Positions 2,094 to 57,489 of a stretch of DNA of 64,000 nucleotides are shown in pieces (within the stretch, counting starts at the first letter, position 1; each line of letters starts with the position of its first letter). The translations under genes and the position numbers were made by a program. The stretch is taken from the NCBI GenBank assembly GCA_963767925.1, contig CAVYGB010000002.1, positions 1,792,001-1,856,000 on the forward strand. The letters are read 5' to 3'. The stretch comes from an uncultured delta proteobacterium. GTDB taxonomy: Bacteria; Myxococcota_A; Polyangia; Fen-1088. The notes below the pieces were generated by a model. It saw only the letters and a list, made by a program, of their open reading frames with translations, had not been told where the DNA came from and made no database searches.

Positions 2094-3118
2094 ATGCGAA
2101 CGTGGTCGGTCTGGGTCGCGCTGGGGGCGCTGCTGATCGCCGCTCCGGCGCGCGGCCAGGACACCCCCAGCTTCCCCGCAGAGAACGCCTGGATCGCCTT
2201 CCCTTGCGGGGGCGGCCCCATGGTGGACGCCCGCCGCGACCAGCCCGGCGCCATCCAGGAGCGGGACATCGTGGGCGACGTGCGCTTCCCCGCCGGGTTC
2301 CGGGCGGTCGACGAGGCGTTCCTGTACCTGCGGCTGCGCCTGGACGAGGCCCCCAACCAGGGCGCCGTGAACCTGCGCCCCTTCGCCTGGGGGTTTGCCT
2401 TCAGCACCGACGCGTTTCACACCGGCTACGAGGTGCTCGTCACGGTGGACGGCGACGCCCGGGTGGTCACCCTGCAGCGAAACACCGCCACCATGTTGAT
2501 CGACAGCCCGGCCGACCCCGCCGACGCGCCGCCGGCCGCCAGCTACCCCTTCGCCACCCACGGGCGCACCTCGGTGGCCGACTACACCGGCACGAACTTC
2601 GACGGCTTCGGCGGCGACCGCGACTTCTTCATCGACCTGGCCGTGCCCTGGACCGCTCTGACCGCGGTGGGGCTGGAGCGGGACCGCCCGGTGGTGGTGT
2701 GGGCCGCCTCGTCGACCGAGCCCGACCGCCTGGACGGCGACCTCGCCTGCCACGACGCCATGGGCTCGAGCGGCGTGCCTGCGCTCAGCCGTTCCGGATC
2801 GGACAGCACGAGCCCCTCGAGCACGATGCGACCGCCGACCGGCGGGGCCGGCGGCGGCGGGGCGGCGGCGGTGGCGCCGGCGGCAGCGGCGGCGCGGGGG
2901 GTGGCGGCGGTGGTGTCGGGGGTGCGGGGGGTAACGCCGGCGGGGCCGGCGGCCTGAGCCTCGAGGGAGGCCCCTCCTGCAGCCACGGCGGCTCGCGCCC
3001 GGGGTTGCCGCCCGCCGCGCTCGTCGTCCTCGTGTCGATCGGAGCGGCCTTCATCAGCATGGCGTCGCAGCGCCGGCGTCGCAGCGTCGGCCGCAGCTCC
3101 TGCCGCATGCGTCCCTAG
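2094..3118 (+). CDS. Secreted surface protein with Gly-rich linker and MYXO-CTERM-like sorting tail; one frameshift near 2860
   Basis: Signal peptide MRTWSVWVALGALLIAAPARG and a globular domain run to about 2800. The Gly linker and the EGGPSC-hydrophobic-RRRR tail continue in another frame, ending at 3118. Confidence 0.7.
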
Positions 3119-3403
3119 CAGCCGTCCTCGCATTGGCGTCGACTCCGAAGGCGTGCGCCGACCTCCGGCTGCTGCTCCAGCAACACGGCTGCGTGCGACC
3201 TGCTGCTCAGGCAGAAGCTGGGCGAGCACGCGCACGGTCACGAGTGGATCGAGGACGAACGCAAACAAGAGACTTCTCGCGTTCTCCTCACCGGCGGGTC
3301 CTGCGGGCTCGCCGCCGTCAGGTGGCACGGGTCGTGCCTGGTGGGACGGGATGTCACGCGACCGGGATCAGTGGGAGCGCCGCCCGCGCCTCCCCCCCAC
3401 CCA

Positions 3404-3775
3404 CTACCGGACTTCCGCTACGTCATCTCCGCCCACAGCCCGGAGATCCGCAAGGACATGGTCTGGCTCGACCACGACCGGACCGGGCTGACCAACCTGT
3501 TTCGCACCTTGCCCAACCACGTGAGCGACCGGGCCCCGCTCAGCCGGCACGTGACCGTCTACACCGTGGACCCCGGGCCCACCGGCGACGAGGCCGAGGT
3601 GGTGTCGGCCCTGCAGGTGTTCCGCACCAGCCTCGACGGCGGGGCCACCGAGCTGTTCGCGGTCGGCAAGATCTACGATCAGATCCGGCTGGTGGCCGGC
3701 GCCGGCCGCCTGGTCCGCCGCCGCATCCACCTCGACACCCGCCTGCTCGGCATCGGCAGCCACATCCCCTTCTAG
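3404..3775 (+). pseudogene. Ring-hydroxylating oxygenase beta-subunit fragment (methanesulfonate monooxygenase MsmB-like), N-terminally truncated
   Basis: FRYVISAHSPEIRKDMVWLDHDR...LSRHVTVY...VVSALQVFRT.LDGGATELFAVG...LDTRLLG.G.HIPF resembles MsmB as I recall it. There is no plausible start and no alpha subunit nearby. Confidence 0.6.
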
Positions 3776-3853
3776 GTTCAGCGTGGTGGCGGGGCGATCT
3801 CGTTGCCAACTCCCCGCTGCCGTCGACGAGGTTCGAGCAGGGCGCGTGCACGG

Positions 3854-4288
3854 TCATCGCGGAGGGTCCTGGCGGTCCGCAGGCTCCGGGCGATCCACCT
3901 GCAGCAGCGTCGCGTGGAGCTCGGGGGTCAGGATCTCGGCCGTCAGCTTCCCCAGGACGGTCAGCAGCTCCACCAGCAGGAAGCGGATCCCCGCCTCCAG
4001 CCCCGGGTCCTCGGCCAGGCGGGCGCGCGCCCCCGGATCGGGGCAGATGATGCCGCCTCGGGGAGCGAGCTCGAGCGACGCGAGCAGCGGGAAGCGCGCG
4101 CGGGCGTCCTGGAGGACCCGCCCGGCGATCGCGGCCAGGGTGGCCTCGTCGAGCGTAATCCTGGCGCTCGCCCACAGGGCCGCGAAGGCCGCCTCGAAGA
4201 GCGGCAGGCGCGTCTCGGCCGAGAGTTTCTCGCTGGTACGCTTCAACCAGGTATCCACGCAGGCAGCGTGATCCGGTCCGGGGGCCAT
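3854..4288 (-). CDS. Conserved hypothetical helical protein of the type usually found beside KaiC-like ATPase/His-kinase loci
   Basis: FAALW..ARITL.E.TL.AI..RVL..A..RFPLL and GIRFLLVELLTVLG.LTAEILTP.LH motifs; GAGGAAG upstream of the ATG. Confidence 0.6.
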   Translation of the reverse strand: MAPGPDHAACVDTWLKRTSEKLSAETRLPLFEAAFAALWASARITLDEATLAAIAGRVLQDARARFPLLASLELAPRGGIICPDPGARARLAEDPGLEAGIRFLLVELLTVLGKLTAEILTPELHATLLQVDRPEPADRQDPPR

Positions 4289-53110: not shown

Positions 53111-53870
53111 CCCCACCCGCGCCTCCAATCTCACGTCCTCAACCTCGCGACCCGCCATCCCGCGTCCCCCGCCATCGGCAAGGGGTCGTTGTCTTGCCAG
53201 GTCTGGCTGGATTGGCGGTGCTCGAGGTGATCGAGGGCGATGGCCCGGTAGCGACACGCGAGGTCAGAGAGAAACGTGCGGGACTCCCCAATGCCGTTCT
53301 GTTGCTCTTTAGACCCTCTTTCCGCGGCCCGATGTGGGGGAGGCAGGGTGGGGGGCGGTTGCCACGCGGGAGGCCCTCACCCGGCGCGCAGACGAGCGAC
53401 TTCTCCCCAAGGCAGGCCGCGGGGAGAGGTGATCGGTCTGTCTTGCGCGAGGTGAACCTCTCCGCCTAATCCAGCACGGCATTGGCTGCTAGCCGTCTGC
53501 TAGCCGAGAGCCCGCCGGCCGCATACTTGAAAAGGGCACTACTTGAAAAAGGTGCTGCTCGAATAGGGCGCTGCTACAAACGAGGCGTCACCAGCCCAGC
53601 CGACGTCGGCTACCTGGCCGATACGGTCTCTTGACCGGCCACTTCGAGGCGGCCGGGCGAGTAAACGCAAGGCCATCTCCGTGCTCAAGAAGCCCAGCAC
53701 GGCCTGGTGGGTCGGTGGCATGGCGATGGTGAGACGGTCGCATGGACGCCGCTGCTTCGCTGCCGCGGCCGTGCAGTCGCACGCTCCGAGGCCACAATGC
53801 GAGCGCTAGGTCGGCTCGCGCTCGAGATCCAGCACGCCGGTGTTTAGAGTGAGCCGCTGAAACCTGTGAA

Positions 53871-54533
53871 TTACGCACGAGAGGCAGCGTTGAAGGCAAT
53901 CAGCGCACAGGCGAGCCGAACGAAGGCTAAGTAATTCTCGGCTTTGCGTTCCCAGCGGATGAGAAGACCTCGATATCGGTTGTGCCAGCTGTTGGTGCGC
54001 TCGACCACCCAGCGTCGCGGGCTACCGTGAACACAGCCGACCAGTGGTGGGTTCGCCTCGCCGGCGGATGTGAGGAACGATTCGACGGCGGCGAACCTCC
54101 TGCTCACAGTCGGCGTAGTCGTAGCCTTTGTCGAGGCACAAGTTCTTGGGGCGACGTGGACCACGAGGGCCCCGCAGGACCATGGCATCCAGGGTCTGGC
54201 CCACCATCCACTTGTCGTGCACGTTCGCCCCTGTGATGGTGACGGCCAGGGGCACGCCGTCGGCGTCGGTCAGGATGTGGCGCTTGGTCCCGAGTTTGGC
54301 CCGATCGGTCGGACTGGGGCCGGTGAGGTCCCCCCTTTTGGTGCCTTGACAGTGGCGCTGTCGAGCGAGCACCAGCTCAGGTCGACGCCAACATGCTGGT
54401 CGTAGTAGAGGACCATCTCCACGTGCATCATGTGGAACACGCCCGCCGCTCGCCACTGCTGGAACCGCTGGTAGCACACGCTGCCGCTGCCGAACTCGCG
54501 GGGGATGGCATCCCATTGGCACCCGGTCTTGAG
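53871..54533 (-). pseudogene. IS5-family transposase, 5'-truncated and frameshifted
   Basis: TGCQW.AIP.EFG...YQRFQQW...G, LDSATVKAPKGG with an A4G5 slip, PTDRAKLGTKRH.LTD..G.PL, DKGYD, and RWVVERT.SW....R.L.IRWERK..NYL. Confidence 0.85.
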
Positions 54534-54537
54534 CTTG

Positions 54538-54787
54538 TTGCAGGGCCAGCTTCGGCGCGCGCTGTTGTCGGCATACCTGGGCATCGCCGAGGCATCCAGC
54601 CGAACGGGCGCCGGATCTCACGGTTCCGCACCGCCAGAGGCGAAGCGTCCGAGGCGGCAGCCGCCTTGGAGGCGGTTGCAATCCTGGGACTTGCTCCGAT
54701 ACCGAGATCGAAGCGGTGATGTCTCTGCTCGACCGGCTGTGCGCGATGCTCACTCGGCTCGCCGGCATGCACCGCCACCAACCCTGA
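54538..54787 (+). pseudogene. Second four helix bundle protein, 5'-truncated and frameshifted (not called intact in the ORF track)
   Basis: Across three frames: QLRRALLSAYLGIAEASSR / RFRTARGEASEAAAALE / VMSLLDRLCAMLTRL*. Confidence 0.65.
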
Positions 54788-54950
54788 TGACTGCCGCGGC
54801 TGTCGTGGTCGTGCTCGTGTGCGAGCGCGTGTTCGAGTTCGTGTCCGTGTGTGGTGAGCGTGTTCGGCCCGCGGGCCTCGGCTCGCGTGATTTACGCGCA
54901 CCGAGAGCCGCCTGGCCGCTCAACGCTCGCCCCACACGAACACGAACACG

Positions 54951-56979
54951 GTGCGACCAGGCAAGGCTGGTCGGAAAGGACTGAATCATGCGGTGATTCA
55001 TGAAATTCCGAATCGTCGTCCAGCGGGTGTGAAACCCGCCCGGCAAGAGCCGAGCCCGGCAGGCCGGTAGCGAGCCTTGCTTCGGGGGCAGCGATGTCAC
55101 CGGATGATGCGTAGGCACGCAAGGACGCGGGCCGCGTGAGTACAGCCTCGAAACTGTTGGTTCCCGAGCGCCCAGGAGCTCGTGTTCTCTGAAGGCAGCA
55201 GCGCCGTCACCGATAAAGGGCCAGGTGACTGCGCGCTCGGCGGGGTCTCGGACCGCGGCACGTATCAAGAGGACGACCCAGCAACCTGGGAGAGCCTCGC
55301 CCTTCCTCGGGCAACTCAGGCCAAACGGGGAGCCTGCCCAAGAATCTCCGACGCGCCGTGGGTCGAGGGTGCACCGACGGCCGGTACAGAAGAAGCGCCC
55401 GACCGAGGTGGGGCCGCGCAGCGAGGGACGACCGGAGCGGCGGCTGAAGAAGGCGAGGCGTCGGAGGGCCCAATAAGAGCGAAGACGTCGGGGAACGGGA
55501 AGGCACCCGGACCCGGCCGAGCAAAGGGGGCCCCGTGTCGAGACGAACTTCAGAGGGGGAACATGAGCGGCGCCAAGACGTCGACGAACCTGTCACCGAA
55601 ACTGATGAAGGTAGCGGAGAGAGCGAAACGGGGAACCCGAAGCCCGGTTGCTCGCGCTGGCATACCTGATGGACGAGGAGCTGATGAAGGAGGCGTTCGG
55701 CCGCATCCGCAAGGATGCGGCGGTGGGCGTCGATGGGGTGACCAAGGAGCAGTACGGAGCGCACCTGGATGACAACATCCGGGGGCTGCACACGCGGATG
55801 AAGGAGGTGCGATATCGCCACCAACCGATTCGGCGGGTGCACATTCCGAAAGCCCCGGGGAAAACGCGGCCGATCGGCATCTCGGCCATCGAGGACAAGA
55901 TCGTGCAGAATGCGCTGACGATGGTGCTGGGGGCCATCTACGAGCAGGACTTCTTGGACTGCTCGTACGGCTTCCGGCCCGGAAGAAGCGCGCACGATGC
56001 GCTGCGGACCCTGAACGCGGCGTGCATGCGAGGCGAAGTGAACGTGGTGCTGGAGGCTGACATAGAGTCCTTCTTCGACAGCATCGACCGCAAAAAGCTG
56101 ATGGAGATGCTCCGGCGGCGGGTGGGCGACGAGTCGTTCATGCGACTCGTTGGCAAGTGCCTCCACGTGGGAGTGCTCGACGGCGAGGATTACACCGAGC
56201 CGGACGTGGGTACGGCACAAGGGTCGGTGCTTTCGCCAATGCTGGGCAACATCTACCTGCACCACGTCCTGGACGTGTGGCTCGACCGGGAGGTCAGGCC
56301 GCGGCTGCGAGGCAAAGCGTGCCTCGTGAGGTACGCGGACGATCTCGTAATCGGATTCGAGCGACCCGAAGAGGCCGAGATGGTGATGGCGATGCTGCGA
56401 CAGCGGATGGCGGAGTACGACCTGCGACTGCATCCAGAGAAGACCCGGCTCGTGCCCTTCAAAAGGCCGTCTTCGCGGCAAGATGGGGGTAAAGGGCCGG
56501 AAAGTTTCGACTTTCTGGGATTCACTCTCCTGTGGAAGAGGACCCGGAAGGGACACTGGGGGCAGAACTTCAAAACCCGAAAGGCGAGGCTCCAGAGGGC
56601 CAAGCAAGCCATCAACGACTTCTGTCGGCGCCACCGACACGAGCCGGTCAAGGAGCAGCACGCCTCGCTCTGCAGGCGCATCAGCGGACATATCAACTAC
56701 TTCGGCGTCAACGGCAACCTGGCCTGCATTTCCCGGCTCGTGAGGGTCGCGGAGAGAATCTGGTACCGGTGGCTGCGACGCCGGAGCAACCGCACGCGCC
56801 TGAACTGGCAGCGCTTCGGGGACCTTCTTCGAGCATTCCCGCTGCCGCGCCCACGGCTGAAAGTTCAGCTCTGGGCAAAGCTGACGTGAGACGTCTCGGC
56901 GGAAGAGCCGGATGGTGGAAATCTCCTTGTCCGGTTCCGGTGGGGGCCCGGGGTGGGTAACTGCCCCGGGCTACCCGAC
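54951..56979 (+). mobile_element. Group II intron, full length (IIB-like, IEP without endonuclease domain)
   Basis: 5' GTGCG at 54951. Domain V GAGCCGGATG..GAAA..TCCGGTTC lies at 56905-56937, followed by a domain VI hairpin with a bulged A and the 3' end CCCGAC. EBS1 CGTGTT (55181-86) is complementary to the exon end AACACG. Confidence 0.9.
55563..56889 (+). CDS. ltrA: Group II intron reverse transcriptase/maturase with a +1 frameshift in a G run at about 55630
   Basis: AVGVDG, IPK..GKTRPIGI..IEDKIVQ, SYGFRPGRS.HDA, ADI.SFFD, QGSVLSP.L.NIYL, YADD, FDFLGF and an X domain; no HNH domain. Confidence 0.9.
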
Positions 56980-57489
56980 AACACGGGCTCGAACACGCCC
57001 ACGAGCACGCGTCCCGGCCTCGATACCTCGTTTCGCCCATCGGCGCAAATTCTCCACAGGTTTCAGCGGCTGGCTCTTAGCAGCCGGACGAGAAGGCGCG
57101 AGGATTGCGAGGTCGGTCTCGTGGCCGAATTCGGTGGGGTGGAGGTCGCGCGCGAAGGTAGCGACGGCGGCGGCGGCGTCTGCGACGGAGACGGGTTGAC
57201 CGCTCTGGAAGAGATCGAGCAGGCAATTGAGTTGCGCAGGCACTTCGGGGTAGGAACCTCGGGTCAGCAGCGGTAGGGCGTGTTCGTCGGACAGGCGCAG
57301 CCGGTCTCTGGGTGTCAACCTGCCGGCGGACTGGGCTGAAAGCACGTCGTCCAGGTGGACGAGCGGGGGACGAGGTTCCGGGCCAGTCCAGGCGTTCTCG
57401 GCTGCGGCGCTGGCGGCATCGAAAATGGTCACGTATTCGCGCGCGACGGCATGGATGTCGCGAGATTCTTCTCGGCGGCGGGAAGCCTG

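Follow-up and report, generated by a model that had tools for sequence, protein, structure and literature searches.

The group II intron RmInt1, whose protein lacks the D and En domains, homes into the insertion sequence (IS) ISRm2011-2 (PMC1802570; also PMC8914252). Class IIC introns, which target terminator stem–loops or attC sites, are described as inserting just downstream or at the edge of a stem–loop, with an intron-binding site 1 (IBS1) of 3–4 bp, no exon-binding site 2 (EBS2) and CGC in domain V (PMC7923331; PMC4424553). IIB introns (CL1, class E) have been reported beside attC hairpins in the integrons and CALINs of halophiles, where a structural role is proposed, not shown (PMC7923331). 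Groups IIE and IIF are presented as compact ribozymes of 450–700 nt without the open reading frame (ORF), with covarying EBS1 and EBS2 in domain I, and for related compact introns EBS2, which is dispensable for splicing, is suggested to matter for retrohoming (Nagy et al., PMC3753933). As described for bacterial introns in general, many copies are truncated and lie among other mobile DNAs, every lineage but class C mostly targets homing sites, and endonuclease-less introns prime with replication-fork strands (Zimmerly and Semper, PMC4424553). The subject here is a group II intron in a 64,000-nt stretch of DNA, the whole of which is called the window, from an uncultured delta proteobacterium (Myxococcota_A; Polyangia; Fen-1088; assembly GCA_963767925.1, contig CAVYGB010000002.1).

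The element in the window is a genuine group II intron. With a probability of about 0.78, it is an endonuclease-less mobile intron with IIB-type exon recognition that reached, by retrohoming, a defined site within the non-coding 3′ end of an IS5-family IS present in many copies. It is a new intron in a known niche; what is particular to it is that its target is read as a repeat and lies in a palindrome. The intron and its target comprise the following features.

54951–56979, + strand: group II intron with IIB-type exon recognition, 2029 nt, delimited by its junctions and Rfam matches.
56903–56979, + strand: domains V and VI; domain V has the AGC triad, and a bulged A lies in ...CTACCCGAC (RF00029 alignment).
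55563–56889, + strand: intron reverse transcriptase/maturase gene without an endonuclease domain, disrupted in this copy by an additional G in the run that ends at 55630.
55181–55186, + strand: EBS1, CGTGTT, in a terminal hairpin loop directly before GAAGGCA (RF02005 alignment).
54945–54950, + strand: IBS1, AACACG, exon positions −6 to −1, the exact complement of CGTGTT.
55155–55158, + strand: EBS2, TGTT, within the variable portion of the 13-nt bulge that precedes the EBS1 hairpin on its 5′ side (RF02005 structure line).
54939–54942, + strand: IBS2, AACA, exon positions −12 to −9, pairing with TGTT; position set by covariation in relatives.
55248, + strand: EBS3, T, intron position 298, pairing with the first base of the 3′ exon (A at 56980).
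54804–54950, + strand: left arm, apex (about 54889–54893) and proximal right arm of the hairpin, made of CGTGNN and CACGNN hexamers (folds and 27-copy alignment).
56980–57012, + strand: IBS3, A (56980), and the distal portion of the right arm of the hairpin.

The 5′ junction (54950/54951; slashes mark the point of insertion) reads ...CACGAACACGAACACG/GTGCGACC, or more widely ...CCCCACACGAACACGAACACG/GTGCGACCAGG..., and the 3′ junction (56979/56980) reads ...CTACCCGAC/AACACGGGCTCGAACACGCCCACGAGCACG, or more widely ...GGGCTACCCGAC/AACACGGGCTCGAACACGCCCACGAGCACG. The intron ends, GTGCG at 54951 and CCCGAC to 56979, agree with the consensus given for group II introns (5′ GUGYG, 3′ AY; PMC7923331). 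Ribozyme structure was tested with the Rfam models of domain I and domains V/VI: RF02005 (group-II-D1D4-6) matches 55030–55255 with 118.3 bits (gathering score, 49), and RF00029 matches 56903–56979 with 42.4 bits (gathering score, 40). Domain V is AAGAGCCGG and bears AGC in the RF00029 alignment; the ribozyme part of the intron is ~700 nt. The original prediction, made from the letters alone, had placed a group II intron in a run of hexamers, and these junctions and matches bear this out. The start given there, 54802, is that of the left arm of the hairpin and not that of the intron (54951).

The intron protein, a reverse transcriptase/maturase encoded in domain IV, is present intact in a second full-length copy of the intron in the same genome (P0001, 441 amino acids). 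P0001 matches TIGR04416 (“group II intron reverse transcriptase/maturase”) with 337.7 bits (cut-off, 300) over residues 39–407, so a D/En region would not fit. The Pfam matches with E up to 0.1 were RVT_1, a weak GIIM match and a spurious weak match, and no HNH-like endonuclease domain was found, in line with the prediction of an endonuclease-less intron. The best matches in a search of PDB are IIC-type reverse transcriptases (E about 1e-39), followed by LtrA; identity to unclassified or IIC proteins in the PDB and plasmid searches is only 40–47% (at most 46.6% in the plasmid tblastn), and the protein reached no named class in either.

Exon recognition was read by aligning the 5′ ~330 nt of the intron to eight relatives from the same bacterial family, and then to 35 more found via the intron protein. 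Pairing of EBS1 and EBS2 was counted in 29 introns with usable exons against 1000 exon permutations; introns with a 5′ end lacking the GTG start, those with exons <16 nt, L002 (the window's intron again) and L013 were dropped. EBS1 pairs at 5.48 of 6 positions (permuted exons, 4.02 ± 0.17; maximum, 4.55 in 1000) and EBS2 at 4.31 of 5 positions (permuted exons, 3.22), figures that overstate independence because many introns are related and share targets. EBS1 pairs at all six positions in 20 of the 29 introns, with compensatory changes in L011 (CGTGCT, exon AGCACG), L071 (CGTGCA, TGCACG) and L096 (TGGATA, TATCCA). The partner of EBS2 lies at exon positions −13 to −8, and pairing is perfect over 6 bp in L015 (CTTACG/CGTAAG) and L020 (CCTATG/CATAGG). 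When all alignment columns were screened, position 298 was found to be Watson–Crick complementary to the first 3′-exon base in 29 of 30 introns, the exception being L011. All three pairings are backed by covariation across relatives, and recognition by the window intron is of the IIB type, with 6 + 4 + 1 base pairs. CGTGTT at 55181 had already been proposed as EBS1, a choice upheld by its place in the loop before GAAGGCA, its complementarity to the exon end and the covariation. The exon consists of repeated AACACG units, so EBS1 and EBS2 each read one of two neighboring units, and EBS3 reads the base that opens the third.

Removal of the intron in silico (54795–54950 joined to 56980–57025) yields one long imperfect hairpin of ~190 nt, as the original prediction had claimed for this palindrome. 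As single-stranded DNA, it folds at −82.3 kcal/mol, compared with a mean of −42.3 (standard deviation, 3.8) for 100 mononucleotide shuffles (z = −10.5). A naturally empty copy (L009:1850-2050) folds at −77.7 kcal/mol as DNA (z −9.35; none of 200 dinucleotide shuffles fold as well) and at −127.1 kcal/mol as RNA (z −9.5). The insertion point is inside the 3′ arm, about 32 nt before the base of the arm. In the fold, nearly every one of the 13 target bases pairs with the left arm, so an extruded hairpin would hide the site or compete with EBS–IBS pairing. The hairpin starts after the stop codon of a passenger ORF of the IS and ends about 40 nt short of the right inverted repeat. A reading of the hexamers as coding sequence was rejected: the arms give His/Glu-rich strings on opposite strands, but the + strand ORF overruns the end of the IS.

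In BLAST searches, the left and right flanks of the intron are contiguous at >20 other sites in the genome. These define an IS unit of ~1610 bp with conserved ends, present as four full copies and many internal-deletion copies that keep both ends; about 27 copies bear the hairpin. The host copy has the following features.

53847–57076, + strand: IS5-family element, an internally deleted copy of ~1.2 kb bearing the 2029-nt intron.
53844–53846: left target-site duplication TTA, repeated after the right end at 57077–57079.
53847–53868, + strand: left terminal inverted repeat GAGTGAGCCGCTGAAACCTGTG, matching the reverse complement of 57055–57076 at 20 of 22 positions.
57055–57076, + strand: right terminal inverted repeat, followed by the TTA duplication at 57077–57079.
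53871–54538, − strand: remnant of the IS5-family transposase, with the C-terminal DDE part kept and the 5′ part lost in the internal deletion (approximate coordinates, mapped from L009).
54538–54787, + strand: remnant of the IS passenger ORF (stop codon, 54785–54787), with weak similarity to the four-helix-bundle protein family of 23S rRNA intervening sequences.

In a megablast search with a full 1610-bp copy (C8:2215924-2217533), the window element corresponds to reference positions 2496–3188 and 3584–4098, with about 400 bp absent between them. An identical T(A/T)A triplet is found on both sides in 10 of the 13 IS copies examined. The window ORF 54022–54768 (−) matches PF01609 (DDE_Tnp_1; E 9.2e-10), and the transposase ORF of a full copy matches NF033580 (“IS5 family transposase”) with 138.3 bits (cut-off, 110) as well as PF01609 and PF13340. 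In the full copy, the transposase is spread over two overlapping frames of one strand, and the passenger ORF is on the other. Comparison of the passenger ORF (L009:1414-1845) with PF05635 gives E 3.4e-5 and 24.5 bits, below the cut-off of 33.8, and is a weak assignment; the N-terminal half of this ORF is in another frame in the full copy, as a pseudogene or through an assembly indel. Judged from sequence, the host element belongs to the IS5 family: transposase, inverted repeats and short target duplications all match.

Genome-wide, paired hexamer arms occur as 23 pairs, 20 of which are in copies of the IS5-family element, the other three being unrelated CACGTG arrays; the hairpin in this genome is therefore IS-borne and not a free intergenic repeat. 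The target had been described as a multi-copy, intergenic safe-haven repeat. That it is a multi-copy hexamer hairpin in non-coding DNA stands (about 27 copies), and its independence as an intergenic repeat does not. In G076, a genome of another genus in the same family, a very similar hairpin (L138 1499–1669, in G076:C659; −76.2 kcal/mol) lies free between two convergent ORFs, and long (GAACAC)n arrays without a partner arm occur in other genomes (for example L143, L141, and L147), so the hexamer motif is older than its tie to the IS. Hairpin arms have 10–19 matches each in G076, G077, G064, and G003. In the window genome (G000), a tandem (GGGAAC)n array lies at G000:C2 about 1148740–1148812, just past the IS end beside the truncated intron copy L003, and a hexamer array of ~125 nt at G000:C10:325051-325175 matches the left arm at 79% in many registers.

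The genome contains six intron loci, two of them full-length and four fragments, and their tabulation agrees with the original expectation that the same site is used. The second full-length copy (G000:C2:1092594-1094618), 97% identical, occupies the same position in a diverged variant of the IS, of which the flank is only ~80% identical; since the introns are so much more alike than their hosts, the intron appears to have moved between IS lineages and not to have been carried passively. Two 5′-truncated copies (one cut at intron position 553 and one a 513-nt 3′ fragment) share the 3′ junction AACACGGGCTCG in the IS. A further fragment (L005) comprises 200 nt of the 3′ part, 100% identical to the window copy and followed by non-hairpin sequence, and the last (L006) is a 56-nt 5′ fragment on the opposite strand, abutting the other arm at the mirror image of the site (...GGACACGAACTCG/GTGCG), where a single base fails to match EBS1. 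A strand bias relative to replication was looked for in the cumulative GC skew of contigs C2, C8, and C10, which gives a weak, noisy signal; both full-length copies share one skew trend but point in opposite orientations (n = 2).

The 27 aligned hairpin copies were scored for IBS2, IBS1, and IBS3. The full site, AACA-NN-AACACG/A, is present in four, two of which hold the full-length introns. None of the other 23 hairpins holds one: 14 have AACT for AACA, two have IBS1 and IBS3 only, and seven have none of these elements. The census fits a real contribution of EBS2 to site choice, in small numbers. Public read data were Logan contigs of soil metagenomes, with 0.46 of the sampled words in the best run and 0.05 in the RNA runs; these contigs yielded nothing on expression. 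In two public DNA runs, a joint skips exactly 54951–56979; an identical junction exists in at least one empty IS copy, so this joint is not assignable to the window locus.

The extra G at 55630 causes a +1 frameshift after about 23 codons of the window copy. Four indels separate it from the second copy, and each is a single additional base in the window copy. Given this pattern and an assembly of 13 contigs that is 83.8% complete (5.0% contamination), the frameshift may be a sequencing error or an assembly error in a homopolymer; a low-depth contig from a public run does not have the extra base but has three other differences. In addition, ~47 substitutions relative to the second copy are confined to a stretch of ~700 nt in the reverse-transcriptase gene (55845–56553; intron positions 895–1603). 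The same stretch also sets the window copy apart from the truncated copies L003 and L004 where these overlap it, and public contigs of run X1 carry the other allele at 56289–56379. The likely origin of this stretch is recombination with another intron variant, or else a mixture of strains in the assembly.

RmInt1 of Sinorhizobium meliloti is the nearest described case. Like the window intron, it has a D/En-less protein, a natural homing site in a multi-copy IS that is defined by EBS1, EBS2, and EBS3 pairing, and truncated copies that accumulate. The two differ in the host, which in the window is an IS5-family element and not ISRm2011-2, and in the place of the site. The RmInt1 site reportedly lies inside the transposase gene, whereas that in the window is in a non-coding subterminal hexamer hairpin, in which EBS1 and EBS2 read the same repeat unit. 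With class IIC, to which the original prediction had likened it, the window intron shares the absence of the endonuclease, an association with inverted repeats and multi-copy, largely neutral targets. This analogy fails at every IIC feature tested: the site is inside the 3′ arm, EBS1 has 6 bp, EBS2 is present, domain V carries AGC and the target bases are paired in the fold. The ribozyme of ~700 nt is a further difference. The IIB introns beside attC sites are likewise non-IIC, endonuclease-less and adjacent to hairpin-forming repeats, but theirs is the upstream hairpin of integron cassettes, whereas the window intron interrupts an arm of an IS-borne hairpin. To the IIE and IIF introns it is similar in its compact ribozyme and covarying EBS1 and EBS2, a likeness by description that implies no class membership.

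Among relatives with both junctions, the closest is L011 (genome G008), which is 85% identical to the window intron and has a degenerate protein gene with several frameshifts. Its site is in the 3′ arm of a near-perfect palindrome of ~650 nt (−341.5 kcal/mol, z −31.7) that is unrelated in sequence to the window hairpin and occurs at many G008 loci in both orientations, with 56 matches to one flank and 46 to the other. One copy of this palindrome (L148; G008:C3:259713-260960) has the element at about 301–948. In another (L151; G008:C4:922700-925900), the palindrome is split within a few bases of the L011 site by an element of ~2.1 kb (about 679–2787), which has inverted ends (CCTCATGATTG...CAATCATGAGG), an apparent TTTGAGC duplication and an RF00029 match inside (40.3 bits). 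The arm of the G008 palindrome appears to be a hot spot for several mobile elements.

More distant relatives are inserted in unrelated sequence without hexamer repeats, and many share the target word ATAGGA-AAACA/AGC. The implication of the original prediction that homologues should not lie in unrelated non-repeat sequence is thus contradicted by these and agrees with L011, which lies in another multi-copy palindromic repeat. About a dozen relatives from several phyla (L057, L060, L062, L100, and others) have near-identical targets, ...ATAGGA(A/G)AAACA/AGC.G.GTTTT..., which suggests a conserved homing site. One relative of 805 nt (L015 1501–2305, in G084:C254) keeps ~674 nt from the 5′ end and ~84 nt from the 3′ end of the intron and has no protein gene; it seems to have lost its ORF by deletion and sits at a site that matches its own EBS, GAAACA/. 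Local folding at the relatives' sites was screened over ±100 nt with mononucleotide shuffles, a crude measure under which the window's own site reaches only z −3.6, most of the left arm being outside the span; eight relatives were dropped for too short flanks. By this measure, only 3 of the 19 relatives in other genomes with ≥80 nt of flank on both sides have z ≤ −2.5, L011 included, and no strong palindrome was found at the near relatives L019, L024, and L034.

Retrohoming into the IS by plain pairing would proceed as follows. The site would be chosen by EBS1 (CGUGUU–AACACG, −6 to −1), EBS2 (UGUU–AACA, −12 to −9), and EBS3 (U–A, +1); the intron would then reverse splice into transiently single-stranded DNA at replication forks, with the nascent strand as primer. 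The IS would supply many nearly neutral targets, and the palindrome would add a mirror-image near-cognate site on the opposite strand, its structure being probably incidental and not required. Four observations weigh against this account. The 11 specified bases occur at eight unoccupied sites in the genome, two of them IS hairpins with the full site (near G000:C10:1777932 and C2:2197957) and six outside the IS, and pairing alone does not explain the restriction to the IS; the counts hint at a constraint beyond the 11 bases. Either the protein reads more of the flank, or context (possibly the hairpin) matters, or the non-IS sites have simply not been hit. The protein gene of the window copy is frameshifted, which may make this copy dead or reliant on the second one. 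Finally, the site of L011 is likewise within the 3′ arm of a palindrome with many copies, which a purely incidental role of the palindrome does not predict.

The last of these observations and the six empty non-IS sites are what recommends the idea that the hairpin itself assists targeting, an IIC-like principle in a non-IIC intron: once single-stranded, the palindrome would extrude or stall the fork, and thereby bare the site or leave a stalled nascent 3′ end as primer just downstream of it; structure would then be part of the target. Both sister lineages whose two junctions are known occupy the 3′ arm of a palindrome present in many copies, the two palindromes being unrelated in sequence (z about −10 here and −31.7 in G008), which is suggestive in a sample of two; the 5′ fragment L006 at the mirror site is again in the 3′ arm of its own strand, and a role of the upstream hairpin has been the subject of published speculation for the IIB introns beside attC sites (PMC7923331). 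Yet the target bases are paired in the fold, which should hinder EBS–IBS pairing, few relatives (3 of 19) have a strong local fold and L019, L024, and L034 have no strong palindrome, the L005 fragment is followed by non-hairpin sequence, and the sample comprises two lineages. Repeats with many copies may often be palindromic in these genomes in any case, and long palindromic repeats may simply be their commonest neutral multi-copy DNA. On this evidence, a targeting role of the hairpin is doubtful. Slightly more doubtful is its extension to a whole sub-lineage of endonuclease-less non-IIC introns specialized on the 3′ arms of long multi-copy palindromes, in which extrusion or fork stalling would open the site or supply a primer, and the symmetry of the palindrome would offer a usable site no matter which strand serves as lagging-strand template. 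It is very improbable that the introns are dead relics spread passively by IS transposition or recombination. The frameshifts in the window copy and in L011, the four fragments among six loci and the presence of a full intron in only 2 of 27 hairpins would fit such remnants, but the full copies are 97% identical within IS variants with ~80% identical flanks, their 613-nt 5′ ribozyme parts differ by zero substitutions, the second copy retains an intact 441-aa protein gene and the identity of L005 to the window copy suggests recent events. The intron is probably still active. Least probable of all is that the intron–hairpin junction is a chimera from the assembly of a repeat-rich, metagenome-derived genome. 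The incompleteness and contamination of that genome, the four single-base insertions and the patch of 47 substitutions in the window copy point that way; against this, the same junctions recur at independent loci with different outer flanks, EBS–IBS complementarity at the junction is exact and a 173-nt public contig matches 54939 to 55111 with zero differences, although it includes only 12 exon bases and is not counted as bridging.

Retrohoming by pairing into the IS, the preferred explanation, makes this intron another retroelement living inside a transposon, a niche that gives it many neutral targets. The locus is also a small natural experiment: two of the four hairpins with a perfect IBS2 are occupied, compared with none of the 14 that differ by one IBS2 base, an occupancy consistent with the published view of EBS2 as important in retrohoming and not in splicing. 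Specialization on palindrome arms, if true, would add a fourth targeting strategy to homing sites, terminators and attC sites, and the sister intron in an unrelated giant palindrome raises the question of whether long palindromes favor invasion by endonuclease-less introns.

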